A stretch of 64,000 bases of DNA from a virus: the IMG/VR virus record IMGVR_UViG_3300045988_101835; one strand, given 5' to 3'. The translations under genes were made by a program, and so were the position numbers. How positions within the stretch are numbered: position 1 is the stretch's first letter; every line of letters starts with the position of its first letter. This document shows positions 1 through 64,000 of the stretch, piece after piece. Below the pieces are notes generated by a model. The model did no database searches, had not been told where the DNA came from, and saw only the letters and a list, made by a program, of their open reading frames with translations.

Positions 1-10
1 GGGTTCGTCT

Positions 11-2314
11 ATGGTCCTTCCTTTTACGGTTCCGGGAAACCGTGTTACGCCGTGGAAGTTGTACTTGGAGCTTCAGTCGGGTTCTTTCCAGAGCAGTTAC
101 GTTAAGTTGGGTTCGGATGTTCTGTCTTCCAGTGTCTGGGTTTTCGCTCAGGCCCAGAGTAGCTCTACGAGTGACGTTGTGAGTCCGGTCTTTCCTTATA
201 CGAGTTATAATGCGTCTTTGTCGTCTCCGCAGGCTAAGTTGTACAAGGTCCGTGCCTTGTGGGATTATACGACGTGCGTTCTGTTCGGTGATAGTAACTG
301 GGCGCAGCCTGTTTTGCCGTCGCAGTATAATTATACGGTTGTTTGGCTTCAGGGGACCTATAATAGGTTCACTGTATCTTCGGGCAGTCGCCTTGAGGTT
401 ACGACGCCGAGTTATACGGGTTCTTTGCCGCTTTTGTCGTCTTCGGACTCCACGGATCTTGGGTTCTATGTTTCGTCGTCACAGGATGGCGAGACGCAGT
501 CGTTATCATATGCCCGCAATTACCTTCTTAGTGAGGTTTTCAAGAATTCGGGTATTGTCACAGAGTCCCAGATTCGTAATTTCGTATTGAGCTTTCCTAG
601 TGTCCAGAGTTGCTGGCTTGATGTTTCTCCGGGAGTTATTTCCATTTATGTTAAGCCCACGCATGAGGGCGATAGTGCCTTTGAGTTCTTGACGGATTAC
701 TTGTATCAGTACGGGGTTCCGGGTCCTAAGTATAGCACTAGTGTCTCCCAGCCGTTGCTGTTCACGGTTGTTCTGCATGATGTTAGTAGTGCTGGTTCGA
801 GCCAGCTTCCACGTGCTATGTCTTTGCTTCGTGAGTTGTACTCGTACGATAATGTCACGTTGTCGACACAGGTTTCGAGTGCTTTGATCCAGCAGGAGCT
901 TACGTTGCAGGGTATCTCGGGTATTACGGCTACGATTCGTGCCATTGAGGAGCTTACGGAGGAGGTTTCGAACTCTTTGGTTCTGCGGTCTTTGCCGTCG
1001 GAGGGTACTATTGTGCTGTACGACGCTTCGGGGCTTGTTTTGGGCTTTGACTCTACGGGCCGCTTTAAGGAGTATGTGATCTTAGATTCCGGCCTTAGTA
1101 ACGCCTTGAACGCTGCCGATGTTTCGATGTCGGGTTTGGGTGATTACGTTTGGCTTGGCGGGGGCAGCGTAAGTTACTTGGTATCGCTGGATGATGGGCG
1201 CCTTCTTCTTTCGGACTCGTCTGTAGCGCTTCCGCCTTTGTCGGCATCTTTTGCTCCTTATGGTAGTGGCTTGTACGCTATGTGGTATGATGGGGTCGAT
1301 AATGGTACGGATGCTAAGCTTGTTCGTTTGTATCAGGATTCGAGTGTTTTCCATTCGGGTAAGTATTCTATCTTCTCTCATCCGTCGTATGTTACTCCGC
1401 TTTCTAACGGTGTCGGGGGTGTTGACTTCGTAGTTCGTCCCGATTCGTCGTTTACGGTTAACGGTGTTCTTGGTGTTAGTGGTTCGGGGCCGTCTTCGGA
1501 TAGCCTTATTTGCTCTGTCACCTCTACTCAGAGTGTTACGGTCGGTGAGTCTACTTATTATCCTAGTGGTCTTGCTCGCTACCGCCGCACGGGCAGCAAT
1601 TATTACTATGACTTGACGTTGTTGTTGTCTGCTACTCCTGCATCTTATGTGAATGCTTCGGCTTTTTATAATGGGGTATGGTATATGCCTTTGACGGATA
1701 TGTCTTCGTCGGAGGCGGGTCTTACGGGCTTTGACATCTATGCTCCAGATGGGTCTTCTATTGGTGACGGTAGTTCCAACTGGTCTAAGAGCCTTAGCTT
1801 GACTATGCTTAATGCAGGTGTTGGGTCTTTGGAGGGTGCTACACCTTTGTCGCTTCGTGTTGTTGATCCGTCTACGATGTATGCGTTGTATACACGTGGT
1901 TCGGGTGACAGTTTGAAGTACTACTTCGGTGTTGTTTACTTCGTCATTTCCGTTTCGGAGTCTTCGGAGTTCCGTTACAGATTGATCTCGGAGGTTGAGT
2001 TCGGTGCTTCGGCTTACCCGTCTTCTATTTTGTCTGCTTCGAGTGGTTTGGTCACGCTTGGCGGCTTAGTTAACGGCAGTCGTCTTTTCTGGTCGGGTTC
2101 TGCTTCGAGCATTACGGCTTCAGGTTATTCGACACTTGGTGCTGGCTTGAGTTCGAGTTTGGTTTTGTCTACGGTAGGTAGTGTTGACTATTCGACGGGT
2201 ACGATCTACGGCTTGGTTGGCGGTGGTCTTGGTGAGTACGTGGAGTACGAGATTGCTTCCACGCTTACGGGCGGTGCTACTTATCCTTTGTTGTCGGACG
2301 TTGTTGTAGATTAG
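11..2314 (+). CDS. hypothetical Ser/Thr/Gly-rich virion (tail-associated?) protein
   Basis: 767-aa ORF with the phage-typical T/G third-position bias. The frame stays open to the window edge, so the start may lie upstream. No catalytic motif recognised. Confidence 0.6.
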   Translation: MVLPFTVPGNRVTPWKLYLELQSGSFQSSYVKLGSDVLSSSVWVFAQAQSSSTSDVVSPVFPYTSYNASLSSPQAKLYKVRALWDYTTCVLFGDSNWAQPVLPSQYNYTVVWLQGTYNRFTVSSGSRLEVTTPSYTGSLPLLSSSDSTDLGFYVSSSQDGETQSLSYARNYLLSEVFKNSGIVTESQIRNFVLSFPSVQSCWLDVSPGVISIYVKPTHEGDSAFEFLTDYLYQYGVPGPKYSTSVSQPLLFTVVLHDVSSAGSSQLPRAMSLLRELYSYDNVTLSTQVSSALIQQELTLQGISGITATIRAIEELTEEVSNSLVLRSLPSEGTIVLYDASGLVLGFDSTGRFKEYVILDSGLSNALNAADVSMSGLGDYVWLGGGSVSYLVSLDDGRLLLSDSSVALPPLSASFAPYGSGLYAMWYDGVDNGTDAKLVRLYQDSSVFHSGKYSIFSHPSYVTPLSNGVGGVDFVVRPDSSFTVNGVLGVSGSGPSSDSLICSVTSTQSVTVGESTYYPSGLARYRRTGSNYYYDLTLLLSATPASYVNASAFYNGVWYMPLTDMSSSEAGLTGFDIYAPDGSSIGDGSSNWSKSLSLTMLNAGVGSLEGATPLSLRVVDPSTMYALYTRGSGDSLKYYFGVVYFVISVSESSEFRYRLISEVEFGASAYPSSILSASSGLVTLGGLVNGSRLFWSGSASSITASGYSTLGAGLSSSLVLSTVGSVDYSTGTIYGLVGGGLGEYVEYEIASTLTGGATYPLLSDVVVD

Positions 2315-2320
2315 AGTGTC

Positions 2321-4282
2321 ATGACTTTAGATGCTGTTCGTGAGGTTTTCCGGAGTTACTTTTTGGAGGAGCTTAGGGTTGATCCGGGTTGGGATGAGTT
2401 CTTGGATCTCATCCTTTCGAACATGGACCTTCGTGCTCTGGACTTCATGCAGTCTAATGGGGTTCCTTATAGTATTGCTTTTAATGATTTTGGGGATCTG
2501 TTTAAGACGTCGGGTCCTTTCGTCGAGGTTCTACATGTTTCCGGTTCATCACGTTCTTCTGAGGGTTATACTTTGTTGGGCTTCAACATGCCGCTTCGGT
2601 ATAAGTTTCTATCGGAGTCGGGCCTGACTACGACAGACCTTCAGTGGTTTGACTTTACGGCTGCTTCTCTGATGTCGCGTCCTCAGTCTGTGAGCTATTA
2701 TACGAGTACAGATTTGGATGCCGCCCCTCAGTGGTTGCTTCGTCCGTCTTGCTATTACTATGTTCCCCAGACGGAGGAGGAGGCTGTGTCGCTGGATACG
2801 CTTCAGGGTCTTTCTGTTCTTGTCGATCCGGTTGTTCCTATTACATGGTCGGAGCGTGTTGACTTGTTTACGTATGCGGATGGTAAGCCTTGCTGCTTCT
2901 TTGTCAAGATATGGGATTATGTCCATGATGAATCCGGGGCTATTTTGCGCGATGCTGTGTCTGGGGAGTACTTCCCTACCATTCCTGCATTACAGCTCGC
3001 CACAGTGCCCGAAACGCTTAATGGTGCTGAGATTTTGAATGCCCGCCGACGGTCGGGTGCTGGGACTTCTCTGTATGGCACTTCTCCGTATGCGTCTGCT
3101 CTGTTTGGTGCTCTGTTTGGCTTGGGTTTGAACTACGCGGAGGTTCCGTTTCGTATTTACTTGGCGAGTGATGACCGTTTAGGTACTCCTACGGCGTCTT
3201 ATTCGTCGTTCGTTGAGTTCTGGCAGGTTCTGGATGCACTTCATGACTTCTTGCCGCGGTCTGTGTTTTTGAATCCGGAGGTTGTGGGTTTGGTTTCGGC
3301 GGAGGATACACGTGTTGATGCTGTTCGTGATTATTGGGGTACGGGTGATAGTATTGTTTCGTCTTTCTCCACTAAGGATCGTCTTCGTCGCATAGCTACT
3401 CGTTATGGTAGTATTCTTGGCTATGACAAGAAGCTTTGGGTTGTAGGGTCTAATGCTCCTTTCTCGGATTTGAACTTCTTGGGTCATGACGGGGGTGACG
3501 CTTCTGCGCCTTATATCAACACGCTGCCTACGGATATGTACTTTACGCAGTATGGTTCGTCGGCGTCGGCTCCGGGTGGGAGCGTTCGTGTTTTCTCGGA
3601 TGTTGCTGCATGGGAGGCATATGTTTACAACACTTCCGATCCTATTTACATTAGTCCGGTTACCATTAGGCTTGATTTGTCGTCATGGTCGGGTAAGCTT
3701 TTGGTTTCGCCTACCGATGGTTCTGGGGTTACGGATTACCTTGTTACTCCGGATTCTCGTCTTGGTGAGCCAGTTTACGGCATCACTAAGAACTATGTTG
3801 ACATGTCGATTCCGGATGGTTTTATCAACCGTTTAGTTCTGTCTTTTGGTGTTTCGGAGGATACTTTCATTGCTAGTCAGTTCGGCGGAGATAGTGCTGC
3901 TGCGTCCGCTTTTCTTTCTAGGCTTCAGTCTTTGCTTGAGGGTGCGGTTCCAGCCGGGGTTTCGGTTCAGGTTCTTTTTGGCACAGATGCCCATCCCGTT
4001 ACTCTCCGCTTTGCTATGGAGGTTGGTACTCCGGATTTCTTTATACGTGTTAGTCCTAGTGTTGTGACGAGTTCCGGCTCGGAGTCTTTCTCGTCTTCGG
4101 TTAGTGTTGAGTCCAATACTGCATGGCATGTGACGTCTCGCGTTGCGCCTTACATTCGTGTTGGTGCGAATGAGTATGAGACTTCGAGTTCTTACACTGT
4201 AGAGCTGGATCCTACGTCGGGGAGTCCTGCTTCGGTTTATGTTGCCACCAATTCGACGGTAGTAGTTAACGGTTCGGTTTAG
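2321..4282 (+). CDS. hypothetical virion protein with C-terminal BACON-like motif
   Basis: 653-aa ORF starting 6 nt after the upstream stop. The C-terminal 'SVESNTAWHVTS...VYVATN' resembles the Bacteroidetes BACON domain pattern (sNt.W.v.s). Confidence 0.6.
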   Translation: MTLDAVREVFRSYFLEELRVDPGWDEFLDLILSNMDLRALDFMQSNGVPYSIAFNDFGDLFKTSGPFVEVLHVSGSSRSSEGYTLLGFNMPLRYKFLSESGLTTTDLQWFDFTAASLMSRPQSVSYYTSTDLDAAPQWLLRPSCYYYVPQTEEEAVSLDTLQGLSVLVDPVVPITWSERVDLFTYADGKPCCFFVKIWDYVHDESGAILRDAVSGEYFPTIPALQLATVPETLNGAEILNARRRSGAGTSLYGTSPYASALFGALFGLGLNYAEVPFRIYLASDDRLGTPTASYSSFVEFWQVLDALHDFLPRSVFLNPEVVGLVSAEDTRVDAVRDYWGTGDSIVSSFSTKDRLRRIATRYGSILGYDKKLWVVGSNAPFSDLNFLGHDGGDASAPYINTLPTDMYFTQYGSSASAPGGSVRVFSDVAAWEAYVYNTSDPIYISPVTIRLDLSSWSGKLLVSPTDGSGVTDYLVTPDSRLGEPVYGITKNYVDMSIPDGFINRLVLSFGVSEDTFIASQFGGDSAAASAFLSRLQSLLEGAVPAGVSVQVLFGTDAHPVTLRFAMEVGTPDFFIRVSPSVVTSSGSESFSSSVSVESNTAWHVTSRVAPYIRVGANEYETSSSYTVELDPTSGSPASVYVATNSTVVVNGSV

Positions 4283-4295
4283 TATTGTAGGTATC

Positions 4296-4880
4296 ATGAT
4301 AGTTTCTAGTTCTTTGCGTGCCGCGGGCACCACGTCGGTTGTTACGGAGGATGTTGTGGGGATCTTGTCGCGTCTTATGCTTTTGCCGTCTTCGGATGAT
4401 ACTCGCAAGTTGTCGGACTATGCGGTTACGAATGTTCTTTACTTCAAGAAGGACATTCTGTCTACTGCTTCGTCTCTGCTTCGTGGTGCTGCGGGTCTAA
4501 CCTTTTCGGATGTCCAGCCGCATGTTCTGTACTGCGACTCTTTAGCATCGGGCTTAGTTGTTTCTCAGCCGGAGCTTATTAACGAGGAGGGTATCGTTGG
4601 TTATCATACTGTTGTTACGTCCACTCTTGCCGCCGATATTCCTGTAGTAGATGATGGTCTTATTTACGGCATGGGTTTGCTTCTTGGTGGCAATACGGAT
4701 AACCATAGTGCTAATTCGCAGCCTGCGAATCCGTCTTTCTATTATGGTGCGGGGACGTATGACGACATGCGTAATTACCTTTTTGTTGTTACATTGTTTT
4801 CGGCGGATTCTCCCATTTCGAAGGAGGCGGATAAGGTTCTGACTCAGTCTTGGGATGTTCATTATATCTGTGAGCTTTAG
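4296..4880 (+). CDS. hypothetical protein
   Basis: 194-aa ORF, tightly packed after the previous gene, with phage codon style. Confidence 0.55.
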   Translation: MIVSSSLRAAGTTSVVTEDVVGILSRLMLLPSSDDTRKLSDYAVTNVLYFKKDILSTASSLLRGAAGLTFSDVQPHVLYCDSLASGLVVSQPELINEEGIVGYHTVVTSTLAADIPVVDDGLIYGMGLLLGGNTDNHSANSQPANPSFYYGAGTYDDMRNYLFVVTLFSADSPISKEADKVLTQSWDVHYICEL

Positions 4881-4946
4881 TGCTGGCTTCTTGGTTGGTA
4901 CGTTTATGGAGGACATGGCTTCGGTCATGTCTTTTCTTTGTGTGTT

Positions 4947-6569
4947 ATGGGTAGGTTTTTTAAAGACGGTTTTCAGTTATTTCCGGAGCAGATTGAATTG
5001 GCTAAGGGTCTTTCTAGCCGTAAGCGTGCTATCCTGATCGACAGTACGGGTAACGGCAAGACGCTTGTATGTTTATATTCCTACAGTTACTTGAAGTCGA
5101 AGGGTTTAGCAGATTGTCTTTTGGTTCTCACGCCTAAGAATGCTTATGACAAGCGGGTCTGGGCGAAGGATGCTGCGGCTCATACTCATTTGACGTCCAT
5201 TTCTTTGGATGACTTCATCAAGAAGGTTTCTGGTGGTGCTGACGTTCTGGAGCTTCTGAATAGCTATGATGTTGTTTACGGCAAGCATACTCATTGCAAG
5301 ACGGATTACGGTGTCCTTCGTCAGATTTATATGTCTTCTTGTAAGTTGGTTACGGTTCTTGATGAGGTCCATGCCTTCAAGAATTCGAAGGCTCAGCTTA
5401 CTTCCACTATGAGTTTGCTTGTTAAGAACTGCTATGCGTTGTGGGGTGTTACTGCCACGGTGCTGAGTAAGAACTGCATGGATACCTACCATTTGGTTAA
5501 CTTCGTCTATCCTCGGTTTTTCACGTCGGTTCGTGGGTTCCAGAGCCAGTTCTGTAAGGTCGAGGAGAAGGTCATTGGTCGCAATCCGGATAAGACTCTA
5601 CGCAAGGCTCGTATCATTACGGATTATAAGGATAGCGCTGCTTTGATGGACTATCTACGTCCGGTTATGATTGTCGGCACGCCACCTGTTCCTTTAGATA
5701 TTCACTTCATTGATTACACGATGTCGGCTTCTGAGCAGGACTTGTACGCTAAGGTTGCTAATGGTTTGATGTTGTCGGGCGAGAGTGATGACGCCACTTG
5801 GATTCAGCAGGTTGTGTCGCGTTCTGAGATTCGTGAGGGTGCCGTCCGGTCGGTCAAGGACTTGGAGCGTCATAGTTCTCGTTTTATCTATCTTCAGGCG
5901 GTCACGGATGGTTGCTTGAATTCGGATGGTACGTTTGGTGTTGGAGGTTCTCGCAAGCTGGATTCTTTACTGACGCTGGTCAGTGATATTGCTTCTCGGA
6001 ACGAGTCGGTTTTGGTTTATTTCGATTTCTATTCGTCATTGGATGCTGCCATGTATCACCTTCAGCGTTCCGGCATTACGGATTCCCGTGGCAGGTCCAT
6101 TGTCGTTGTTGAGTCTTCGTCTCGGAATGTCCTTAAGCCTACACAGGCTACGGAGTCGCAGTGCTTCATGAATAGTTATGTTATTCTGTGTACTCGTGCC
6201 GCTTCGGAGTCTGCCAATTACACTTACATTAATAATGTCGTATTGTTCGACGTTCCGGTCACGCCTATTCCGTTCCTTCAGTTTATTGGCCGCATTACGC
6301 GCAAGACGAGTAAGTTTTTAGGTGATCTTCATTTGTGGATATTCCGCAGTGATGACATTTCGGAGTATAAGCTTCAGCTTGTAGGCTTCAAGGTTTATAT
6401 GCAGGAGAAGATCAGCTTTGAGATTCATAATTTCCCGCGTGAGTATGTTAAGCCGATGTCGGATGCGGAGCACCTTCGAGTTGCAAAGCAGCATCTGCTG
6501 TGGAAGGGTCGCAAGCCGCGTCTTACGCGGTCGTCTCAGATTGTTCCGCAGGGCGGTACTCTCTTTTAG
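4947..6569 (+). CDS. SNF2/DExH-type superfamily-2 helicase
   Basis: Motif I 'DSTGNGKT', motif II 'LDEVHAF', motif III-like 'GVTAT', motif VI 'QFIGRITRK'. The first in-frame ATG at 4947 was chosen over the TTG at 4938. Confidence 0.75.
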   Translation: MGRFFKDGFQLFPEQIELAKGLSSRKRAILIDSTGNGKTLVCLYSYSYLKSKGLADCLLVLTPKNAYDKRVWAKDAAAHTHLTSISLDDFIKKVSGGADVLELLNSYDVVYGKHTHCKTDYGVLRQIYMSSCKLVTVLDEVHAFKNSKAQLTSTMSLLVKNCYALWGVTATVLSKNCMDTYHLVNFVYPRFFTSVRGFQSQFCKVEEKVIGRNPDKTLRKARIITDYKDSAALMDYLRPVMIVGTPPVPLDIHFIDYTMSASEQDLYAKVANGLMLSGESDDATWIQQVVSRSEIREGAVRSVKDLERHSSRFIYLQAVTDGCLNSDGTFGVGGSRKLDSLLTLVSDIASRNESVLVYFDFYSSLDAAMYHLQRSGITDSRGRSIVVVESSSRNVLKPTQATESQCFMNSYVILCTRAASESANYTYINNVVLFDVPVTPIPFLQFIGRITRKTSKFLGDLHLWIFRSDDISEYKLQLVGFKVYMQEKISFEIHNFPREYVKPMSDAEHLRVAKQHLLWKGRKPRLTRSSQIVPQGGTLF

Positions 6570-6603
6570 TTTTTTTTTTCTGGTGTGTTCTAAACTTAAG
6601 ACT

Positions 6604-8103
6604 ATGGAGGATATGTTTGGTGATTTAGGGATTGTTGACGCGCAGGGTTGGCGTGTCTCCGAGTTTTCTGCTGGCGGTGTTAACTCTCAGAAAGCCCGTC
6701 TTGCTTTAGAAGAGCGGTATTGGCCTATCACCGAAATAACCGAGCGATTTAATCGTCAAAGCGTCAGTTATCAATTAAGCAAAAGAGATTGTCTGCATAA
6801 ATGGTTAAAATACAAGGAGGGTTTTTCTGCCGAGTTGGTCAGTGCCCTTTTGCGTGATTTTCGTTTACAAAAGGGCGATCTAGTAGTAGATCCTTTTATG
6901 GGGTCAGGTACGACGGCTTTAGTATCAATGTTCAATGGGTACAATAGTCTTGGTTTTGATATTTTGCCTATGTCAGAAATTGCTATTCGTGCAAAGACTG
7001 CTATTTATGTATATGATGTATTGGAGCTGAAGGAGCTTCTTAAAGAGGTGGTAAACTTGCACGTTCCGGAAGAGTATGCAGGGCGCACTCCTGAAATAGG
7101 AATTACTAAAGACGGTTATCCCAGTGAGACGAGTCGTGATTTGGCCTATTATAAAGAACATTTTCTCAATTCCAGATATTCTGAGACTACGAAAATGCTT
7201 CTTGAGCTTTGTACTTTGAATGCTTTGGAGCGTATAAGCTACTCTGCAAAAGATGGGCAATATCTTAGATGGGATTATCGCTGTCCCAAGATTACTGCTG
7301 CTTCGGAGGCTAGATTAAGACAGGGTAAGAAGCCTTTTGCTGTCAAATTGGATAAAGGGTCCTTGCCGTCCCTCAAAGAAGTATTACTGGAAGAATTAAG
7401 TGGTGTCCTTCGGGATATAGAATACTTAAATAATACTCCTATTGGGTTTGATACGCAATGTAATTTTATTGAGGGAAGTGCGCTTTTTGAATTACCGAAG
7501 CTTGCAGACGGAACAGTTAGCGCAGTAATATCTTCTCCTCCATACTGTAACCGATATGATTACACTCGCACCTACGCTTTGGAGTTAGCCTATTTGGGGT
7601 TATCCGAGGCTGATGTGCGGGCATTACGTCAGGACTTATTGTCGTGTACAGTTGAGAATAAATCTAAAATTGAGCAACTGCGGGATTATTATCATCAAAT
7701 AGGGCAGGAAGATCATTATGACAGGACAATGAAGATCGTCGATGGAAATGCGGCACTTCAAGAAATAAATAACGCTTTGAAGAGCCGTAATGAAAACGGA
7801 GAGATAAACAATAAGGGAGTCCTTAAAATGGTGGATGGGTATTTCACAGAATTGACCTTTCTGTTTTCTGAGTTGTATCGCGTATGTAAGACTGGTGCAT
7901 ACGTCGCTTTCGTTAATGATAACGTAAGGTATGCGGGCGAAGTTATTCCGGTTGATTTTCTCACTACCAATTTGGCCGAGCAAATAGGTTTTACTCCAGT
8001 AAAGATTTACACTTTAAAGCAACAAAAAGGTAATAGTAGTCAGCAGATGAAGAGATATGGACGAGTAGCTTTGCGAAAAAGCATTACTATTTGGCAGAAA
8101 TAG
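6604..8103 (+). CDS. DNA methyltransferase (N6-adenine or N4-cytosine class)
   Basis: AdoMet motif I 'VVDPFMGSGTT' and catalytic motif IV 'SSPPYCNRYDY' about 200 aa later (alpha-like motif order). ATG at 6604 chosen because the upstream part of ORF 6418-8103 overlaps the helicase. Codon usage is A-rich at third positions, unlike the flanking phage genes. Confidence 0.8.
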   Translation: MEDMFGDLGIVDAQGWRVSEFSAGGVNSQKARLALEERYWPITEITERFNRQSVSYQLSKRDCLHKWLKYKEGFSAELVSALLRDFRLQKGDLVVDPFMGSGTTALVSMFNGYNSLGFDILPMSEIAIRAKTAIYVYDVLELKELLKEVVNLHVPEEYAGRTPEIGITKDGYPSETSRDLAYYKEHFLNSRYSETTKMLLELCTLNALERISYSAKDGQYLRWDYRCPKITAASEARLRQGKKPFAVKLDKGSLPSLKEVLLEELSGVLRDIEYLNNTPIGFDTQCNFIEGSALFELPKLADGTVSAVISSPPYCNRYDYTRTYALELAYLGLSEADVRALRQDLLSCTVENKSKIEQLRDYYHQIGQEDHYDRTMKIVDGNAALQEINNALKSRNENGEINNKGVLKMVDGYFTELTFLFSELYRVCKTGAYVAFVNDNVRYAGEVIPVDFLTTNLAEQIGFTPVKIYTLKQQKGNSSQQMKRYGRVALRKSITIWQK

Positions 8104-8139
8104 CATTATATTTTTTGCGGTTACCTGTGTTGTATGCAT

Positions 8140-8216
8140 TTAACGGGCGTGAAGAGGTCGGTTGTGGCTTCGACGAAGCGTCAATATGTGCAAGTTATTA
8201 ATTGTATATACTCACC
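8140..8216 (+). mobile_element. orphan right-end / omega-RNA-like fragment of the TnpB element family (no tnpB ORF)
   Basis: 'acgggcgtgaagaggtcggttgtggcttcgacgaagcgtcaatatgtgcaagttattaattgtatatactcacc' aligns by eye with the last ~80 nt of the three full elements (28690-28765, 38990-39062, 49322-49397), including the conserved hairpin and the terminal ...tcacc. Confidence 0.7.
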
Positions 8217-8233
8217 TTTTAAAATAGTATTTT

Positions 8234-8581
8234 ATGGATATTACGGGCATTTTTTCGGAGAGCTTTTGGTGGCTTGCTCCGGCACTTTCCGCCGCTACGG
8301 TTTTGCTGGCGGGTGTTGCTAATGGTCTTTTCAAGATCACGAATGGTATCTGGCCGCAGGTTGTGGCTTGGGTTATCGGCACGGCTCTGTCGGTTGACGC
8401 CTACTTTGCGGGCTTGATTGAGATGGGTCAGCCGGAGTGGCTTGGTGTTGTGATGCTGTGTGTAGTCGTTGGTTTGTCTTCGAACGGCATCTACGACATT
8501 CCTGCCATTAAGGCATGGGTTGATGCTTGGTTCGCCAAGAAGCCTACGACCTCTACAGCCAAGAAGAAGACGCAGAAGTAG
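8234..8581 (+). CDS. small membrane protein (holin-like?)
   Basis: 115-aa ORF with about three hydrophobic segments and a Lys-rich C-terminal tail. The function is a guess from architecture only. Confidence 0.55.
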   Translation: MDITGIFSESFWWLAPALSAATVLLAGVANGLFKITNGIWPQVVAWVIGTALSVDAYFAGLIEMGQPEWLGVVMLCVVVGLSSNGIYDIPAIKAWVDAWFAKKPTTSTAKKKTQK

Positions 8582-8671: not shown

Positions 8672-8703
8672 TTTGGATTTATAATTTTAATTATCTACTT
8701 TTG
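8672..8703 (+). promoter_or_regulatory. Bacteroides-type promoter (-33 TTTG / -7 TAnnTTTG)
   Basis: TTTG at 8672-8675, a 20-nt spacer, then TACTTTTG at 8696-8703. Preceded by a T-run, with an ATG 42 nt downstream. Confidence 0.6.
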
Positions 8704-8744
8704 TGTTGTAGATATAGTTCTACGGATAATTTAATTTCGATTTG

Positions 8745-9431
8745 ATGGTGCGTGATATTACTAATCTTGTATGTCCTAAGCGTATTTTATACTTGTGGGA
8801 TATTCATAATCAGTTGATCGATGATTCGGGCTATGAGTTGATTAGCGATTTTGAGTATTACAAGAAAGCTATTTCCTCCCACTTGGAGCCTTATGCTGAT
8901 ATTCTAGATTACTCATGTTTGCCTATTTCTGAAGTACAAGCTATTTCTGCTGAGTATAAGTTTGTGCGTGAGCTTGTTCAGTTGAATTACCTACTTAGTT
9001 GCAATGATCCTGTTGTTCGTCATGGTTATATGGACTTGCATTTTTCGGGTAGGTCCTCCTATTTGTTTTCGGGTAGGCATGATGCTTCTCAAGTTTTGTT
9101 TGACGTTAAGTTCCACGATGGTCTTCCTTCGATATCTCAGTTGGAGTTGGTGGCTACGTTTTATACTAAGTCTAAGAATCTTTCTAAGCTTGTCTCTAAG
9201 CGATTAGGTATCGATGCTTTTAAGTCTGCGTCAAATCCGTTGGCTAGTTATATGGATCGTTTGAGCAATGGGTTTGCGTTACATATTTATCGTTCTGTAT
9301 CTGATCGTAGTCGTCATTCTATTTCGGATGTCTCTTTTATATGTGATTTTTATAAGGATATTCCTGAGTTGCGTGTGAAGCATTACATTCCTTCAATTAC
9401 GACCGCTTTAGAGGTGTTTGACTGTTTGTAG
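8745..9431 (+). CDS. hypothetical early protein
   Basis: ORF downstream of a host-type promoter. No motif recognised. Confidence 0.6.
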   Translation: MVRDITNLVCPKRILYLWDIHNQLIDDSGYELISDFEYYKKAISSHLEPYADILDYSCLPISEVQAISAEYKFVRELVQLNYLLSCNDPVVRHGYMDLHFSGRSSYLFSGRHDASQVLFDVKFHDGLPSISQLELVATFYTKSKNLSKLVSKRLGIDAFKSASNPLASYMDRLSNGFALHIYRSVSDRSRHSISDVSFICDFYKDIPELRVKHYIPSITTALEVFDCL

Positions 9432-11304: not shown

Positions 11305-11789
11305 ATATTGTGCACATTCCGGTTTTAGCTTGGTTTATCCGTCCGGGTGTGGGTGCGTTGCTAGAGGAGTCTTTCCTACCGTAGGTTCCGTTTGCATAGC
11401 TGAATATCAGGCGTGGCGGCTTGGAGTAGCACGGCAACAGCTAAGTATGGGTTCTTTTGTTTTCGCTGCAGTTAACGGACATATGGTTAGTCCTTGCTGG
11501 GTTTCTTATAAAGGGATTTCTCAGGGGTAGTGCAGTGTTTAACGAAGTTTGTTTATGGGGCATTATCCGTTCGCCACTATGCTTTGGCTATAAGGATTCA
11601 TACTTTTTATACGTCTATGGTTTGTGTTCCTTGACATAGTGAAGACGGCACCGTCGAGAGTGATACTCTTTCGCTTTTAACCTTTGGAGCTCACTCATCT
11701 TTTTCTTCAGGCAATTCCTTGTGCATGTTCTGGATTTAGCCTGTCACTCTCACTTGTTAGTGGCGTGTGCTGTCTTCACCTTTTTTTTT
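11305..11789 (+). ncRNA. candidate structured non-coding RNA (family unknown)
   Basis: About 480 nt without a convincing ORF. The 3' part is closed by a 13-bp long-range helix, gtgaagacggcac (11639-11651) with gtgctgtcttcac (11767-11779), followed by T9. Confidence 0.35.
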
Positions 11790-11914
11790 CAGTGGGACCT
11801 GCCTGAAAGTAGAGTAGGGTGTATGTGAATCAGGGGTTCGATTCCTTATACCGACTAAGTTCGTCGCTGGTTGGTGCTGGTTTGCAATATAGTGCCTTCG
11901 GGGTCCTTCTTGTT

Positions 11915-15035: not shown

Positions 15036-16411
15036 TGCTAGGTTTTGAGATTTACTTTTACACGTGTGCGGGCAAGAAGTCGCATCCTGATTTTGACGAT
15101 TGGTTTTCTCGCTTTTTACAGATTCCTAATTTATCCAAGAATGACAGGCAGGTTCTAGAGTATACGCTTTCCTGTTCTGCTGCTGGGTGCTATCCGTCTT
15201 GGGCATGGTATGGTAAGTATTACCCTACTCCGGACCATGCCTATAATCTCGGTGAGCTTAGTGTTGCGTATGCGGACATTGTAGATGGCTATAGCCGCCT
15301 TAAGTTGGCTACGGATGTCACGGGTTCCCTTAGTAGCACTTCGACTACTAAGGAGCTTGCGGAGGAGCTTAAGCGTGCGCTTCAGTCTGTTAGTGTTGCT
15401 TCGGATGCGAGTGTCGCTGACTTTAGTTCATGGTCCTACGGCGAGGAGCTTAATACGCCTTACGGTGACGGTCTTTCTCTGGGTGTTCCGGAGGTAGATT
15501 CATTGACCAATGGTTTCCAGCCGGGTACGGTTGCTAGTATTTGTGCTTTCACGGGCGGCGGCAAGACACAGCTTTGTTTGTCTATGCTGTTCAAGAATGC
15601 CAAGGCGGGTCGTAAGATTGTTTATGTGTCTTTGGAGCTTGAGCCTAAGATGGTTTGGCTTATGCTTGAGACTCGGTACATGTATGAGGTTAAGGGCATC
15701 CAGTTGGATTCTCAGGACTTGCTTTTTCATAAGTTGTCGGGCGATAAGTTGAAGGCGGTTCTTGCTGCCGAGGATGACTTCAAGCGGGACTTCGTTCCTA
15801 ACGTTCTTGTTGTAGATACTTCGTTGTTCACGAAGTCGGTTTTCACCAATGTCGATAGCCTTGTTACTTTGTATGGGGTTCTGGATAAGCATTTAGGGGG
15901 TCTTGACTGCATTATTTACGACCATGTCAATCAGTTTGACCTTCTGTTTCAGGATCGTGGTAAGGGCTTAGGAAATTCTATCATTGTCAATCTTCGAGCC
16001 GCTTGTTTAGCTTTCACCAATAGTGCGGGTAGTAAGTGCACTACGGTTTTTGCCGTTCAGGTTAACCGTGCGGGTTTTACCCGTGCGGGTCGTCGTGGCG
16101 GGGCTTATGACCTTACAGCTATCTCGGACTTGAATGAGATCGAGCGCACGAGTGCCTACTGTGTTTTCATGTATACGGGTTTGGACGTTGCGGAGACTCA
16201 GGAGACGAAGATCTGTATGATTAAGCATCGTCTTGGTCGCATCTTGCCGGAACCTGTTACGGCTCAGTTTTTGCCGAAGGTTGTTCTTGTGGGTGATAAT
16301 GTCGAGTTTATCTCTTACGAGGGTGAGTTTGCGCAGTTGGGTTCTATGGACGATTTTGGTTCTTCTAGCGACTCTCTTACGGCGGAGCTTACAGCCGATC
16401 TAGGTCTATAG
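15032..16411 (+). CDS. DnaB-like replicative helicase (RecA-fold)
   Basis: Walker A 'AFTGGGKTQL', Walker B-like 'LDCIIYDHVNQF', 'FAVQVNRAG'. The start is coupled to the upstream gene by an ATGA overlap. Confidence 0.7.
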   Translation: MMLGFEIYFYTCAGKKSHPDFDDWFSRFLQIPNLSKNDRQVLEYTLSCSAAGCYPSWAWYGKYYPTPDHAYNLGELSVAYADIVDGYSRLKLATDVTGSLSSTSTTKELAEELKRALQSVSVASDASVADFSSWSYGEELNTPYGDGLSLGVPEVDSLTNGFQPGTVASICAFTGGGKTQLCLSMLFKNAKAGRKIVYVSLELEPKMVWLMLETRYMYEVKGIQLDSQDLLFHKLSGDKLKAVLAAEDDFKRDFVPNVLVVDTSLFTKSVFTNVDSLVTLYGVLDKHLGGLDCIIYDHVNQFDLLFQDRGKGLGNSIIVNLRAACLAFTNSAGSKCTTVFAVQVNRAGFTRAGRRGGAYDLTAISDLNEIERTSAYCVFMYTGLDVAETQETKICMIKHRLGRILPEPVTAQFLPKVVLVGDNVEFISYEGEFAQLGSMDDFGSSSDSLTAELTADLGL

Positions 16412-27381: not shown

Positions 27382-27412
27382 GGCGTCGCATTAAAGTGCA
27401 AAATTGTATATA
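27382..27412 (+). repeat. degenerate right-end-like fragment of the TnpB element family
   Basis: 'ggcgtc...gtgcaaaattgtatata' shares gcgtc, gtgcaa and aattgtatata with the element 3' ends ('gcgtcaatatgtgcaagttattaattgtatata'), with a 6-nt gap. Confidence 0.35.
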
Positions 27413-27473: not shown

Positions 27474-27502
27474 CCTCCGCGAATTCTTTGCGGAGGTTTT
27501 TT
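27474..27502 (+). terminator. rho-independent terminator
   Basis: cctccgc-gaattcttt-gcggagg followed by T6. Confidence 0.7.
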
Positions 27503-27535
27503 GTTGAGGTAATCATATACAATTTTATTCTGCCG

Positions 27536-27567
27536 TTTGTAATAGACGTAAAATAATTATAACTTGC
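27536..27567 (+). promoter_or_regulatory. Bacteroides-type promoter inside the element left end
   Basis: TTTG at 27536-27539, a 20-nt spacer, then TAACTTGC at 27560-27567, 4 nt before the tnpB ATG. The same geometry occurs at 37833-37864 and 48168-48199. Confidence 0.4.
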
Positions 27568-27571
27568 AGCC

Positions 27572-28750
27572 ATGAAGAAGACATTCAAATATCGCATCTA
27601 CCCGAACAAAGCCCAGCAGGCTTTGTTACAGGCGACGTTTGGATGCTGCCGCTTCGTTTACAACAAAACGCTTGATATTAGGAAGACGGCTTACGAGACC
27701 GACAAGATGAAGCTTAGTAAGTTCGATTGCATCAATCGGATGACTGCGTTGAAGGATGAGTATACGTGGTTGCGTGCCGTTCCTGCGGTTTGCTTGGTTC
27801 AGGCTGTTGACAACATGGATACAGCCTACCAAAACTTCTTCAAATCTGGTAAAGGTTATCCGAAGTTTAAGTCGAAGCATCGTAGCCGTAAGTCCTGTAA
27901 GTTTATGGTGCCTAAGTGTGTTGTATTGCAAGATATTAGTCGTTTAAAGCTTTCTAAGTTAGGGTTAGTCAAGTACAAGAAAGACCGGGAGTTCGTTGGC
28001 GCTTTGCGTCACATTGTGGTTACACAAGAAAACGATGGTAAGTACTACGCGTCGTGCTTGGTGGAGACGGGCGTTGAAGCACCTAAGCCAAAGCCCGTTG
28101 ATGATAGCACAACGGTCGGCATTGACTTGGGGCTGAAAGACTTTATCGTCACGTCCGACGGGCGCAAGATACCTAACCCGCGCTTTTATGCTACTATTGA
28201 CCGACGCATAGCTAGGTTACAGAAGCATGAAGCACGAAAGACGAAAGGCTCGAAGCGTCGTGCCCGCATTCGCTTAAAGATTAACAAACTTTATATCAAG
28301 AAGCAAAACTTAATTAAGAATTATATTTACCATGCCGTCAAGACGTTACTGCGTGAGAGTCAAACGATAGTAATGGAGAATCTTAATGTTGGCGGCATGG
28401 TTAAGAATCATAGTTTAGCTAAATCCATACAGAACATTTGCTGGGGTGAACTTCGCAGAGTGTTAGAGTATAAGTCTCAATGGCTTGGTCATAACCTTAT
28501 TTTCATAGATCGTTGGGCACCGAGTACGAAGACTTGTAGTTGTTGCGGCTTTAAGAATGATATATTAACACTTTCAGATCGTTCGTGGACATGTCCGGGT
28601 TGTGGTACGCATCACGACAGAGATGTTAACGCTGCCCTCAACATTAAGCGTATGGGTTTAGAAAAGTTATTGCCTACGGTGAGTGGGTTCGACGGACGTG
28701 GAGAGATCGGTTACGATCTCGACGAAGCGTCAATATGTGCAAGTTATTAA
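27572..28750 (+). CDS. tnpB: TnpB (OrfB) RNA-guided nuclease family protein
   Basis: N-terminal 'YRIYPNKAQQALLQATFGCCRFVYN', RuvC-I 'GIDLGLKDF', RuvC-II 'VMENLN', zinc finger 'CSCCG...CPGCG', RuvC-III 'HHDRDVNAALNI'. Confidence 0.9.
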   Translation: MKKTFKYRIYPNKAQQALLQATFGCCRFVYNKTLDIRKTAYETDKMKLSKFDCINRMTALKDEYTWLRAVPAVCLVQAVDNMDTAYQNFFKSGKGYPKFKSKHRSRKSCKFMVPKCVVLQDISRLKLSKLGLVKYKKDREFVGALRHIVVTQENDGKYYASCLVETGVEAPKPKPVDDSTTVGIDLGLKDFIVTSDGRKIPNPRFYATIDRRIARLQKHEARKTKGSKRRARIRLKINKLYIKKQNLIKNYIYHAVKTLLRESQTIVMENLNVGGMVKNHSLAKSIQNICWGELRRVLEYKSQWLGHNLIFIDRWAPSTKTCSCCGFKNDILTLSDRSWTCPGCGTHHDRDVNAALNIKRMGLEKLLPTVSGFDGRGEIGYDLDEASICASY

Positions 28751-28765
28751 TTGTATATAATCACC
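28636..28765 (+). ncRNA. putative omega-RNA (reRNA) scaffold overlapping the tnpB 3' end
   Basis: By analogy with characterised TnpB systems. The conserved hairpin gagatcg-gtta-cgatctc (28703-28720) shows compensatory changes in the other copies. The 5' boundary is a guess. Confidence 0.4.
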
Positions 28766-28781
28766 CTTTGTTTGTAGAATA

Positions 28782-37806: not shown

Positions 37807-39062
37807 GGTAATTATTTACTTTTTCATTTTCATTTGCAATAAATGTAAAATAATTGTAACTTGCAGTCGTGAAGAAGGCATTTAAATATCGCATTTATCC
37901 GAACAAGGCCCAGCAGGCTTTGTTGCAGGCGACGTTTGGGTGCTGTCGCTTCGTGTATAATAAAACGCTAGACATCAGGAAGACGACGTATGAGAGGGAT
38001 AAGACGCAGCTTAGCAAGTTTGACTTAACCAAGAAGATACCGCTGCTTAAAGAAGAGTTTCCGTGGTTGCGCGACGTTCCGGCGGTATGCTTGCCGCAAG
38101 CAGTCGGCGATATGGATGATGCCTATCAGAAGTTCTTTAAGTCCGGTAATGGTTATCCTAAGTTTAAGACGAAGCATCGCAGCCGTAAGTCTTGTCGTTT
38201 TCCGGGCCAGAGTTGTGCGGTATTGCAAGACATTAGTCGTTTAAAGTTTCATAAGTTAGGCTTAGTCAAGTATAAGAAGGATCGTGAGTTCGTCGGTACT
38301 TTACGTCACATTGTGGTTACACAGGAAAGTGACGGTAAGTACTACGCTTCGTGTGTAGTAGAGACGGGTGTCGAAGCACCTAAGCCACAATCCGCAGAAG
38401 CTAGTACGACGGTCGGTATTGACTTAGGACTCAAAGACTTTATCGTTACGTCGGACGGACGCAAGATAGCTAACCCGCGGTTCTACGCTACTATTGACCG
38501 TCGTATAGCTCGGTTGCAGAAGCACGAAGTTAGAAAGACGAAAGGGTCTAAGCGTCGTGCACGCATCCGATTGAAAATTAACAAACTTTATGTTAAGAAA
38601 CGCAACTTAATCAAAAATTATATTTACCATGTTGCCAAGACGTTACTGCGTGAAAGCCAAACGTTAGTAATGGAAAATCTCAATATTGTCGGCATGGTTA
38701 AGAATCATAGTTTAGCTAAATCCATCCAGAATATTTGTTGGGGTGAACTGCGTAGAGTGTTGGAGTACAAGTCTCAATGGCTTGGCCACAATCTCATCCT
38801 CATAGATCGTTGGGCACCGAGTACGAAGACTTGTAGTTGTTGCGGTTTCCACAATTCTATGTTGACGCTTTCAGATCGTTCGTGGGTTTGTCCGGGTTGC
38901 GGTACGCATCACGACAGAGACGTCAATGCTGCGATTAATATTAAGCGTATGGGTTTAGAGTCATTATTGCCTGCGGTGGGCGGGTTTGACGGACGTGGAG
39001 AGGTTGGTTACAACTTCGACGAGGCGTCAATATGTACAGTGTAGAAATTGTATGCATTCACC
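37807..39062 (+). mobile_element. TnpB-only insertion element, copy 2
   Basis: Left end ggtaattatttac... and right end ...aattgtatgcattcacc. Its ends are more decayed than those of copies 1 and 3. Confidence 0.75.
37869..39044 (+). CDS. tnpB: TnpB family protein (GTG start)
   Basis: Full set of motifs as in copy 1: GIDLGLKDF, VMENLN, CSCCG...CPGCG, HHDRDVNAAINI. The start codon is GTG where the other copies have ATG. Confidence 0.85.
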   Translation: MKKAFKYRIYPNKAQQALLQATFGCCRFVYNKTLDIRKTTYERDKTQLSKFDLTKKIPLLKEEFPWLRDVPAVCLPQAVGDMDDAYQKFFKSGNGYPKFKTKHRSRKSCRFPGQSCAVLQDISRLKFHKLGLVKYKKDREFVGTLRHIVVTQESDGKYYASCVVETGVEAPKPQSAEASTTVGIDLGLKDFIVTSDGRKIANPRFYATIDRRIARLQKHEVRKTKGSKRRARIRLKINKLYVKKRNLIKNYIYHVAKTLLRESQTLVMENLNIVGMVKNHSLAKSIQNICWGELRRVLEYKSQWLGHNLILIDRWAPSTKTCSCCGFHNSMLTLSDRSWVCPGCGTHHDRDVNAAINIKRMGLESLLPAVGGFDGRGEVGYNFDEASICTV

Positions 39063-48122: not shown

Positions 48123-48139
48123 GCAGTTATATATCCCAA
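48123..48139 (+). promoter_or_regulatory. variant of the conserved phage motif, abutting the element left end
   Basis: gcagttatatatcccaa, immediately followed by the copy-3 left end at 48140. Confidence 0.4.
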
Positions 48140-49397
48140 GGTGATTATATGCAACTTTATATCATCGTTTGCAGTAAATGTAAAATAATTGTAATTTTCA
48201 GACATGAAGAAAGCATTCAAATATCGCATCTACCCGAACAAGGCTCAGCGGGCTTTGTTTCAGGCGACGTTTGGATGTTGCCGTTTCGTTTACAACAAAA
48301 CGCTTGATATCAGAAAGACAGCTTATGCGATGGATAAGACGCAGCTTAGCGAGTTTGATCTCATCAAGAAAATAAAGCCGCTTAAAGAAGAGTTCCCGTG
48401 GCTGCGTGACGTTCCAGCGGTTTGCTTACCTCAAGCAGTTGGTGATATGAATGATGCTTTCCGTGATTTCTTTAAGTCGGGTAAGGGTTACCCTAAGTTC
48501 AAGACGAAGCATCGTAGTCGGAAGTCTTGTCGTTTTCCCGGCCAGAGTTGTGCAGTGTTGCAAGACATTAGTCGCTTAAAGCTTCCCAAGCTTGGTTTAG
48601 TTAAGTACAAGAAAGATCGTGAGTTCATTGGCACTTTACGGCATATAGTGATTACGCAAGAAAGTAATGGCAAGTATTATGCTTCGTGCTTGGTTGATAC
48701 GGGCGTCGAAGCACCGAATCCGAAGCCAGTAGAAGCTAGTACGACGGTCGGCATTGACTTGGGGCTTAAAGACTTTATCGTCACGTCGGATGGGTGTAAG
48801 ATGCCCAATCCACGTTTTTATGTTACTATCGACCACTCCATCGCCCGCTTGCAGAAGCACGAAGCGCGGAAGATGAAAGGATCGAAGCGTCGTGCGCGCA
48901 TTCGGTTAAAGATTAACAAACTTTACAGTAAGAAACGGAATTTAATCAAGAATTATATTTATCATGTCGTCAAGACATTACTGCGCGAAAGCCAAACGCT
49001 AGTAATGGAGAACCTTAACATTGTTGGCATGGTAAAGAATCATAGTTTAGCTAAATCCATCCAGAATGTTTGCTGGGGTGAGCTTCGCAGAGTACTGGAG
49101 TACAAGTCGCAGTGGTTGGGTCACAACTTAATCTTCATAGATAGGTGGGCGCCTAGTACGAAGACTTGCAGCCATTGCGGGTTCCATAATTCTACGTTAA
49201 CGCTTTCAGATCGTTCATGGACATGTCCGGGGTGTGGTACACATCACGACCGGGACATCAACGCCGCGATTAACATTAAACGTATGGGTTTAGAGACATT
49301 ACTGCCCGCGGTGAGCGGGTTCGACGGGCGTGGAGAGGTCGGTTACGGTCTCGACGAAGCGTCAATATGTGCAAGTTATTAACTGCATGTAATCACC
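48140..49397 (+). mobile_element. TnpB-only insertion element, copy 3
   Basis: Ends ggtgattatatgcaact and aactgcatgtaatcacc are 14/17 inverted repeats. The element is flanked on both sides by tcccaa (48134-48139 and 49398-49403). Confidence 0.8.
48204..49382 (+). CDS. tnpB: TnpB family protein
   Basis: GIDLGLKDF, VMENLN, CSHCG...CPGCG, HHDRDINAAINI. Confidence 0.9.
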   Translation: MKKAFKYRIYPNKAQRALFQATFGCCRFVYNKTLDIRKTAYAMDKTQLSEFDLIKKIKPLKEEFPWLRDVPAVCLPQAVGDMNDAFRDFFKSGKGYPKFKTKHRSRKSCRFPGQSCAVLQDISRLKLPKLGLVKYKKDREFIGTLRHIVITQESNGKYYASCLVDTGVEAPNPKPVEASTTVGIDLGLKDFIVTSDGCKMPNPRFYVTIDHSIARLQKHEARKMKGSKRRARIRLKINKLYSKKRNLIKNYIYHVVKTLLRESQTLVMENLNIVGMVKNHSLAKSIQNVCWGELRRVLEYKSQWLGHNLIFIDRWAPSTKTCSHCGFHNSTLTLSDRSWTCPGCGTHHDRDINAAINIKRMGLETLLPAVSGFDGRGEVGYGLDEASICASY

Positions 49398-49852
49398 TCC
49401 CAATGGCCAATTGAGATGGTCTGTTGTTGACGGTTTTTTTTTTCTTTTCTTCTTGAGGACTTACGCTGTGACGGTGCGAGTCCTCTTTCTTTTACGTATA
49501 TGCCAGCAAGGCTTTCTGCGGTTTTCCGCAGTTGGTCTGGTTAGTTTTCCATCATTTCGTGTGGGGTTCTTCTGCTGAGATAGCATGAGTCTCCATTTTG
49601 CAGATTGCTTTGTAGAATTTTTTCATGTCCTCCGTAGCTTTGTGTGTTCTTGCTGCGGAGGTTTTCGTTGTACGTATATGTATTTGCGTTACATTTTGTA
49701 AGTGTTTAGTGTGACGCATGTCATCGTATGGTTATGTACCTTTCGTCGTGAGATGCGAGTACATATGACGCAGGTCCTGTTTTTCCATTTTGTATAGCAC
49801 CTTCACTTTCCTTCACGTGACCTGCGTTCCTTCTTCAATTCGTTTGGAGTTT

Positions 49853-62895: not shown

Positions 62896-64000
62896 ATGTT
62901 ACGTGCCTACCAGTATAGAATCTGCCCGACTGATGAGCAAAAGGTCTTGTTCGCAAAGACTTTTGGCTGTTGTCGTTTTGTCTATAATTGGGCATTGAAT
63001 CTGAAAATCACGGCATATAAGGACCGTAATGAAACACTCGGCAACGTGTACCTTACCAACCTGATGAAAAGCGAGCTGAAAGCGGAGCATGAATGGTTGT
63101 CGGAAGTTAACTCCCAATCCTTGCAGAGTGTGCTACGTAATCTCGACACTGCTTACACCAACTTTTTCCGTAACACCAAGGCTGTAGGATTCCCAAAATT
63201 CAAGTCACGCAAGGACCGGCAGAGTTTCCTTTGCCCCCAGCATTGCCGTGTGGATTTTGAGAAAGGAACAATCACAATTCCCAAGGCAAAAGATATTCCT
63301 GCCGTGCTGCACCGCAAATTTAAGGGAACGGTAAAGACCGTTGCTGTCAGCATGACACCTTCAGGCAAGTACTTCGCATCAGTATTGGTCGACACCCCTG
63401 TTCAAGAACTTCCGGCAACACCCATACAGGATGATACGGCTTTGGGAATTGACTTGGGTATCAAGTCGCTTGCCGTATGTTCTGACGGGCGCACGTTTGA
63501 CAACCCGAAGAACTTGCAGAGAAGCCTTGATCGTTTGAAGCTGTTTCAAAAGCGGTTGAGTCGCAAACAGAAAGGCTCGGCAAACCGTAACAAGGCTCGC
63601 GTCAGGGTAGCCCGGTTGCAGGAACACATAGCCAACAGCCGAAAAGACAGCCTTCACAAAATCACCCATGCGCTTACGCACGACAGCCAAGTGCGCACCA
63701 TCTGCATGGAGGATTTGAACGTGAAGGGGATGCAGCGCAATCACCATTTGGCACAAGCCGTGGGGGATGCCTCTTTCGGTATGTTCCTGACGCTGCTTGA
63801 ATACAAATGCAGTTGGTATGGCGTGAACCTCGTCAAGATAGACCGATTTGCCCCAAGTTCAAAGACCTGTGGCAAATGCGGCTACGTGTATAAAGGATTG
63901 AGGCTAAGTGAGAGAAGCTGGACATGCCCGGAGTGTGGTACACACCACGACCGGGACTTCAATGCCGCTTGCAACATAAAAGAATTTGGCTTGAAAGCCC
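62896..64000 (+). CDS. tnpB: TnpB family protein, second lineage, 3'-truncated by the window edge
   Basis: Absent from the ORF track because it has no stop in the window. Hand translation gives MLRAYQYRICPTDEQKVLFAKTFGCCRFVYNWALN..., then GIDLGIKSL, CMEDLNVKGM, CGKCG...CPECGTHHDRDFNAACNI. Confidence 0.85.
   Translation, partial: MLRAYQYRICPTDEQKVLFAKTFGCCRFVYNWALNLKITAYKDRNETLGNVYLTNLMKSELKAEHEWLSEVNSQSLQSVLRNLDTAYTNFFRNTKAVGFPKFKSRKDRQSFLCPQHCRVDFEKGTITIPKAKDIPAVLHRKFKGTVKTVAVSMTPSGKYFASVLVDTPVQELPATPIQDDTALGIDLGIKSLAVCSDGRTFDNPKNLQRSLDRLKLFQKRLSRKQKGSANRNKARVRVARLQEHIANSRKDSLHKITHALTHDSQVRTICMEDLNVKGMQRNHHLAQAVGDASFGMFLTLLEYKCSWYGVNLVKIDRFAPSSKTCGKCGYVYKGLRLSERSWTCPECGTHHDRDFNAACNIKEFGLKA

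Follow-up and report, generated by a model that had tools for sequence, protein, structure and literature searches.

Why does the tail of a TnpB element lie, with no tnpB gene attached, between an orphan DNA methyltransferase gene and a small membrane protein gene of a phage? The initial annotation of this locus offered three explanations, namely that the fragment is debris, that it is a stand-alone guide RNA that TnpB proteins from other loci of the genome could use in trans, or that it marks the 3' end of an element in which the methyltransferase had replaced tnpB as cargo. The whole stretch of DNA that we analysed (64,000 nt, hereafter the window) belongs to a crAss-like phage of the human gut, and in the databases it comes closest to contigs of human faecal phages and to crAss-like phages. 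Almost all of its genes lie on the + strand, the coding strand being strongly T-rich, with an AT skew of about -0.25 to -0.4.

The sequence at the centre of the question is a genuine, though truncated, TnpB mobile-element tail. The right end (RE) of the first full element copy in the window aligned by blastn to positions 8143-8216 with 87.8% identity over 74 nt (E 3.5e-21). An HMM built from eleven full right ends and run against the whole window matched 8124-8216 (E 4e-20), and a covariance model of the right end scored the remnant at 70.4 bits (E 2.5e-20). In a repeat search, 8121-8220 grouped in one family with the three resident right ends. Identity to these resident right ends is only 78-87%, and the nearest right end among those retrieved is that of L025, at 90.7%. 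Homology reaching back to 8121, which would amount to 100 nt of right end, was considered and rejected. Two related genomes that have no right end at this site (L011 and L012, described below) contain the stretch 8121-8141, and the confidence of the HMM alignment is low there and high only from ~8141; the breakpoint was therefore set at ~8142-8149. At the other side, the remnant terminates with ...ACTCACC at 8216, 113 nt past the methyltransferase stop. This boundary is the true terminus of the element, since the family alignment ends at TCACC and homology to the related genomes L001-L004 resumes at 8217; TCACC is likewise the insertion boundary relative to L011 and L012. When the remnant was folded alone, helices 5-7 formed as in the full copies, all three intact, and the conserved hairpin was kept through wobble and compensatory changes. 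The limits of 8140-8216 given in the initial annotation were thus essentially right, as were its statements that no tnpB is present, that the conserved hairpin and the terminal tcacc survive, and that the fragment follows directly on the methyltransferase gene and precedes the start codon of the membrane protein gene (gene 8234) by 17 nt. No intact IS200/IS605-type element is present at 6570-8216, where there is no match to the left-end HMM and the sole ORF is the methyltransferase. A search of the phage database revealed nothing similar to the remnant sequence itself. The features of the locus and the full elements in the window are listed in Table 1.

Table 1. Coordinates of the features at the methyltransferase-gene 8234 locus and of the full TnpB elements in the window.
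Feature	Position	Strand	Basis or remark
Left junction of the methyltransferase cassette (T-run plus leader)	6570..6603	+	Directly after the SNF2 stop; not a left end
Orphan N4/N6 DNA methyltransferase gene, from a bacterial BsoBI-type restriction-modification system	6604..8103	+	Pfam N6_N4_Mtase (PF01555)
Methyltransferase 3' flank, with RE-terminus-like 16-mer at 8129-8144	8104..8141	+	Common to L011/L012; not detectably element-derived
Solo right-end (RE) remnant of an ISDra2-like TnpB element	8142..8216	+	Last 75 nt; 3' part of the omega-RNA scaffold; TCACC end
Proposed deletion junction, microhomology ACGGG(C/T)GT in the L011/L012 methyltransferase 3' flank and in the tnpB 3' end	8142..8149	+	Three-way comparison of window, L011/L012 and elements
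Outer stem 8146-8150/8178-8182 around covarying hairpin 8154-8160/8165-8171	8146..8182	+	Family helices 5 and 6 (RNAalifold, pair counts on ten full right ends)
Subterminal RE hairpin 8185-8193/8202-8210, then tail CUCACC 8211-8216	8185..8210	+	Family helix 7
Ancestral phage sequence, 5' leader of gene 8234; start of the would-be guide	8217..8233	+	Homology to remnant-less relatives resumes exactly here
Small membrane protein gene, 115 aa (gene 8234)	8234..8581	+	Weak holin match (phrog_1299, E 0.005)
Full element copy 1 (left end, tnpB, right end)	27508..28765	+	Empty site in L062
Full element copy 2	37807..39062	+	Absent from L058
Full element copy 3	48140..49397	+	Clean empty site in L045

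TnpB genes have already been reported in crAss-like phages (PMC11054128). The window has three intact tnpB ORFs, at 27572-28750, 37869-39044 and 48204-49382, and each encodes the full TnpB domain set of HTH_OrfB_IS605, OrfB_IS605 and Cas12f1-like TNB domains, in agreement with the three resident TnpB proteins that had been annotated. The copy-1 protein matches ISDra2 TnpB with an E value of 3.5e-67, and the RuvC motifs (D/E/D in the resident TnpBs) are present. The full elements measure 1.26 kb; the left end (LE) begins GGTRAT... and has the family sequence GGTRATYATATRCAA, and the right end finishes ...AATCACC. An LE HMM scored the three true left ends at 60-72 bits. The ends of IS200/IS605 elements carry similar top-strand hairpins on both sides, and the apparent inversion of the LE start relative to the RE tip is a likeness of this kind; terminal inverted repeats were accordingly rejected. 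A TAM search of eleven left flanks and three empty sites found no consistent motif beyond a terminal A, which closes most of the left flanks. When GTDB was scanned for bacterial copies of the TnpB family, the only genome recovered was a 'Muribaculaceae' MAG (L064-L068; CANQWS010000007.1, CANQWS010000032.1). One 88-kb contig of this MAG holds four copies and probably derives from a crAss-like phage that was binned together with its host.

Near-identical strains differ in the elements that they carry (L050 and L052 against the window), indicating that gain and loss of elements are ongoing. A further full element is located in the tRNA region of some strains, including window-type ones (L003:12574-13830, L050:6768, L052:6764), where it replaces ~300 nt of the window (11611-11908) and is not a simple insertion. 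Several element sites were compared for flanking repeats. Copy 3 is flanked by TCCCAA on both sides (48134-48139 and 49398-49403) and the L045 empty site has one TCCCAA; copy 1 duplicates TTTGTT relative to L062 (about 27498-27503 and 28767-28772); and the element in L017 has TAATTGCA on either flank. No flanking duplication was seen for the copies in L064, L065 and L025, and the element-less L058 has 17 unrelated nt at the copy-2 site. Canonical IS200/IS605 transposition is not known to make such short direct duplications. The window ends within a fourth and more divergent tnpB (MLRAYQYRICPTDEQ...; ~62900-64000), in a region with a local AT skew of +0.14, and partial matches to the RE HMM and the covariance model were found at 63919-64000.

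The history of the site can be read from related phages, which fall into three arrangements between the SNF2 helicase gene and gene 8234: type A (L001-L004), type B (L011 and L012) and type C, the arrangement of the window. L002-L004 are 95-97% identical to the window over positions 1-6569; their homology ends right after the SNF2 stop codon, and all four type A genomes resume at 8217, L001 being a short contig that covers only from 8217 onward. In between, L002-L004 have 1043 bp that hold a host-type promoter and three small genes and end ...GGTTTTCA|TTTTAG.... The type B genomes have a methyltransferase at the same site as the window (96% aa identity for L011 and 89% for L012), with an identical left junction consisting of a T-run plus ctggtgtgttctaaacttaagactATG. 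They match the window from 8104 to ~8146 and then continue with ~245 nt of ordinary phage intergenic DNA, which includes a TTTG-N19-TAnnTTTG promoter and ends ...GGTTTTTCA|TTTTAT... before the membrane protein gene. No RE-like part was found in this ~245-nt stretch by HMM or covariance model. The uninterrupted junction ...GGTTTTTCATTTTA... (TTTTCA|TTTTA) is kept in L011 and L012 as well as in the methyltransferase-less L003. The type C arrangement was found in L013, L014, L028 and ten further contigs, from different samples, and its 130-nt spacer is identical in them except for the length of the T-run. Among the relatives, the site thus occurs with the methyltransferase only (L011/L012) and with neither methyltransferase nor right end (L001-L004), and none has a full element there. 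A junction pattern for a full element at this site gave 0 matches in IMG/VR and retrieved only another window-type contig from the metagenome collection, and the exact membrane protein was examined in ten contexts, each of them window-type with no full element at the site.

The whole SNF2-to-membrane-gene interval (6570-8233 in the window, L003:8941-9983) is a swap site, occupied by three small genes and a promoter in L002-L004 and, in L011, L012 and the window, by the methyltransferase cassette; the corresponding intervals vary in length in the more distant L005-L008. Further downstream, gene 8742-9431 (229 aa, no Pfam or PHROG match; region 8722-9431) is absent from L001-L003, which have ~15 nt in its place.

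Collectively, these comparisons make it likely that the remnant is a solo right end left behind by an insertion and a subsequent deletion. The debris option of the initial annotation is thereby supported, as L011/L012 and L001-L004 together allow a simple path to be rebuilt. Because ...TTTTCA-TTTTA... is common to types A and B it is ancestral, and type C, with its RE|TTTTA junction, has the derived state; because type B has the methyltransferase with no right end, the methyltransferase would have arrived first. The homology, both junctions and the two other arrangements are observed in the sequences. In the order of events and the deletion mechanism that we infer from them, the orphan methyltransferase would already have been present in an ancestor, flanked by the SNF2 helicase and small membrane protein genes as in L011 and L012. 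A TnpB element of the resident family would then have inserted at ...TTTTCA|TTTTA..., 17 nt before the membrane protein gene and in the orientation of the phage genes. A later deletion would have joined two copies of ACGGG(Y)GT, one ~40 nt past the methyltransferase stop and the other in the last codons of tnpB, removing ~245 nt of intergenic DNA together with the host-type promoter in it, plus the left end and ~1.18 kb of element sequence that took in nearly all of tnpB, so that only the last 75 nt of the element survived. As far as TAACGGG the window agrees with type B, and from ACGGGCGTG on with the element family; ACGGG(T/C)GT is found in both partners, the type B flank and the element. 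Such a deletion would account for the lack of a host-type promoter in the window from the SNF2 gene to gene 8234, and since then the remnant would have been a passive part of the transcript that runs on from the methyltransferase to gene 8234. Today it most likely represents inert debris.

Homologous recombination between two right ends was considered as another route to the same junction. An older degenerate right end after the methyltransferase of L011/L012 would be needed, and this candidate was rejected as no HMM or covariance-model match was obtained at E<=10. The sequence 'GCGATTATATATCC' of L011/L012 was likewise rejected as a right-end relic, since it fits the phage's own repeated motif GCAATTATATATCC (family D13) better. 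Stacked insertions had also been suggested by the initial annotation from a resemblance of 8127-8141 to the copy-2 right end. The resemblance itself is exact over eleven nucleotides, as 'tgttgtatgcattta' shares the 11-mer TTGTATGCATT (8130-8140) with the copy-2 RE tip, and 8129-8144 fits the RE-terminus pattern at 13 of 16 positions, the sole such match in the window outside true element ends. Neither the HMM nor the covariance model supports a right-end origin for 8129-8144. The RE-less L011 and L012 also carry the 16-mer, with 12 of 16 positions matching; were it a relic, it would therefore be older than the remnant. Stacked insertions may have occurred in the methyltransferase 3' flank; they are not demonstrable from this motif. 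A further degenerate right-end piece had been proposed at 27382-27412. This claim did not hold, as the segment shares only the 11-mer AATTGTATATA (shuffle p about 0.007), gave no HMM or covariance-model match at E<=10 and is conserved in relatives that lack copy 1.

A scar in the 5' leader of a gene could have acquired a function in cis, and we considered whether the remnant serves gene 8234, for example as a site of processing or TnpB binding or as a stabiliser. If so, expression of gene 8234 would be coupled to the methyltransferase transcript. The promoter comparison speaks in favour of this, as no host-type promoter was found between 6570 and 8233 in the window and both type A (L003) and type B (L011) have one; gene 8234 would have lost its own promoter in the deletion. 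TnpB is known to process its RNA on the 5' side (PMC10097598), and the remnant has a stable predicted fold (-20.5 kcal/mol), although its folding z-score is only -1.8. The remnant is also invariant in all window-type contigs: it is 100% identical in 12 others, which came from different samples. This invariance is not significant against background diversity, because the contigs were picked via near-identical proteins and the background is ~2.6 variable sites per 130 nt; fixation is thus compatible with selection, yet uninformative. No terminator-like or promoter-like signal was found in the remnant, and there is no independent instance of an RE remnant used as a cis element. Taken together, a co-opted cis role appears improbable, and inert debris remains our preferred reading. 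Elsewhere in the window, Bacteroidetes-type -33/-7 promoters (TTTG-N19-TAnnTTTG) were observed at 8672, 10848, 13080, 28782 and 44125, and a phage-specific motif, GCAATTATATATCCnATAAAT, at 16403, 31569, 34113, 49878 and 55389, 14-17 nt before start codons. Copy 3 and the elements in L017 and L023 are directly beside the phage-specific motif, and copy 1 is 17 nt before a Bacteroidetes-type promoter.

A related and more speculative idea is that the truncated right end, as part of the transcript from the methyltransferase to the membrane protein gene, is still bound or cut by the TnpB proteins, either as a decoy or RNA processing site that links expression of the putative holin to TnpB or as a minimal trans-acting guide against rival phages without the insertion; we regard this as very unlikely. 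Slightly less probable again is the stand-alone guide RNA of the initial annotation. In that scheme the remnant would be loaded in trans by a resident TnpB and direct cutting of insertion-less phages upstream of gene 8234, which, if true, would bias inheritance in co-infection. The three apparently intact TnpB genes with D/E/D motifs in the same genome would supply the protein, a read-through transcript would present the scaffold followed by the flank as helices 5-7 and the exact 3' terminus are kept, and the phage lineage in which the remnant is fixed is a widespread one. Omega-RNAs provided in trans by protein-less IS200/IS605 derivatives have moreover been described (PMC10055086).

The structure of the family omega-RNA argues against such a function. 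A model built from ten full right ends was 96.7% paired, compared with 28-47% in slid controls, and had 7 compensatory pairs compared with 1.5 in shuffles (0 of 500 reached 7). The family layout consists of a hairpin with a GGUGA loop (-87..-83), an outer stem around the covarying hairpin, and a 3' hairpin. The GGUGA loop and the UCACC tail are 100% pairable, but both are invariant in the family, and the pseudoknot predicted between them is based on this invariant complementarity and on analogy with ISDra2 and not on covariation. In the 116-nt scaffold of the ISDra2 omega-RNA, positions -5..-3 form a pseudoknot with -105..-103 of the stem-1 loop (PMC10097598). This scaffold has been described as necessary and sufficient, and truncation within the pseudoknot inactivates it (PMC11844463). 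The remnant starts at -75 and retains only the last 75 nt of a scaffold of ~94 nt or more. The stem-1 equivalent and the GGUGA loop are gone, and the window bases at the loop position read GTTGT. A complete scaffold, with stem 1 and pseudoknot as taken from ISDra2, is thus absent, and as the 5' third of the scaffold is missing, guide function has most likely been lost. Together with the divergence of the remnant from the resident right ends, the target sequence also speaks against a working guide. The would-be guide after 8216 is TTTTAAAATAGTATTTTATG (matching DNA TTTTAAAATAGTATTT); over 20 nt it differs from the site of each related phage retrieved by at least 4 mismatches, two of which fall at positions 6 and 7 in L003-type and L011-type sites, and it has no other match within the window. 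No promoter-like site was found near the remnant, and no omega-RNA family in Rfam matched it.

The remaining explanation concerns the methyltransferase, which had been proposed as the cargo of a mobile unit from ~6582 to 8216. Its bacterial homologues (82-87% aa and 86% nt identity) directly follow an Endonuc-BsobI gene (PF09194), a neighbour seen in L015 and L038-L044, and these homologues together with the N4/N6 domain identify it as a BsoBI-type methyltransferase. No endonuclease gene appeared in the gene and domain listing of the window. The annotation had noted that the methyltransferase shares the non-phage style of the elements. Both are indeed compositionally foreign, with AT skews of -0.02 for the phage methyltransferase and ~0 for tnpB compared with -0.25 for the phage genes and +0.11 for the bacterial copies; the shared composition is explained by two independent acquisitions and not by a common element. 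Although the block absent from L001-L004 extends exactly from the SNF2 stop to the right-end terminus, and the RE-terminus-like 16-mer also follows the methyltransferase in L011 and L012, the cargo reading is the least probable of all, because no left end was found by the LE HMM upstream of the methyltransferase (the 'ggtg' motif thought to resemble one scored -1.5 bits compared with 60-72 for true left ends), L011/L012 have the gene and the identical left junction with no right end, the bacterial copies are M genes of BsoBI-type restriction-modification pairs with no element ends, the 16 nt before the ATG match bacterial loci at 11/16 and the left end at ~6-7/16 by hand count, and the only other viral copy of the methyltransferase (L010) is in a different context. 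Judged from these sequence comparisons, METHYLTRANSFERASE (the methyltransferase) would not be cargo of the element, and the methyltransferase and the remnant are adjacent through separate events. Two further observations concern the methyltransferase gene itself. Its ORF is split in two window-type contigs, L053:1871-3370 (77+417 aa) and L056:1870-3370 (65+422 aa), which suggests that the gene is decaying, or that a later start is used, in part of the population. In the last 64 nt of the gene, eight linked variable sites at 8040-8076 form two haplotypes among eleven window-type genomes, and this pattern just upstream of the remnant looks like the boundary of a recombination tract.

As the scar of an insertion sequence, the remnant carries little weight in itself and serves as a dated marker of what happened at this site. 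It points to TnpB elements of this crAss-like lineage inserting into gene leaders and being lost by short-repeat deletions that can take phage promoters along. It also marks an interval between the SNF2 and membrane protein genes in which three small genes have been exchanged for a host-derived orphan methyltransferase. For annotation the locus is a warning, as similarity to a right end is by itself no ground for calling a stand-alone omega-RNA, and completeness of the scaffold should be checked.

Compared with known systems, the right-end RNA of the family resembles the omega-RNA of ISDra2 TnpB (reRNA, PDB 8H1J and 8EXA) in its layout, with a stem-1 loop predicted to pair with the last 5 nt. 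In the remnant, helices 5 and 6 resemble stems 2 and 3 of the ISDra2 omega-RNA, but stem 1 and the 5' strand of the pseudoknot are missing. The remnant is also like the palindrome-associated transposable elements (PATEs) in being a protein-less derivative of a TnpB element beside intact TnpB genes (PMC10055086). PATEs, however, keep both ends and stay mobilisable, whereas the remnant has no left end and its right end is cut at an internal breakpoint, so that it does not qualify as a PATE- or MITE-like derivative. The adjacent methyltransferase is comparable to orphan phage methyltransferases captured from host restriction-modification systems (M.BsoBI-like), a likeness that concerns the neighbouring gene and not the remnant. 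The closest counterparts of the remnant are the solo-end scars of IS200/IS605 elements (TnpB-only, IS1341-type), with which it shares terminal homology to intact copies in the same genome, an exact terminus on one side and an internal breakpoint on the other, and the lack of a transposase or TnpB gene. It differs from typical scars of this kind in that it is located in a crAss-like phage and not in a bacterial chromosome, that the deletion would have taken a phage promoter, and that it is fixed in a widely sampled lineage. The remnant is thus an ordinary kind of object, a solo right-end scar, here with a well-resolved history.
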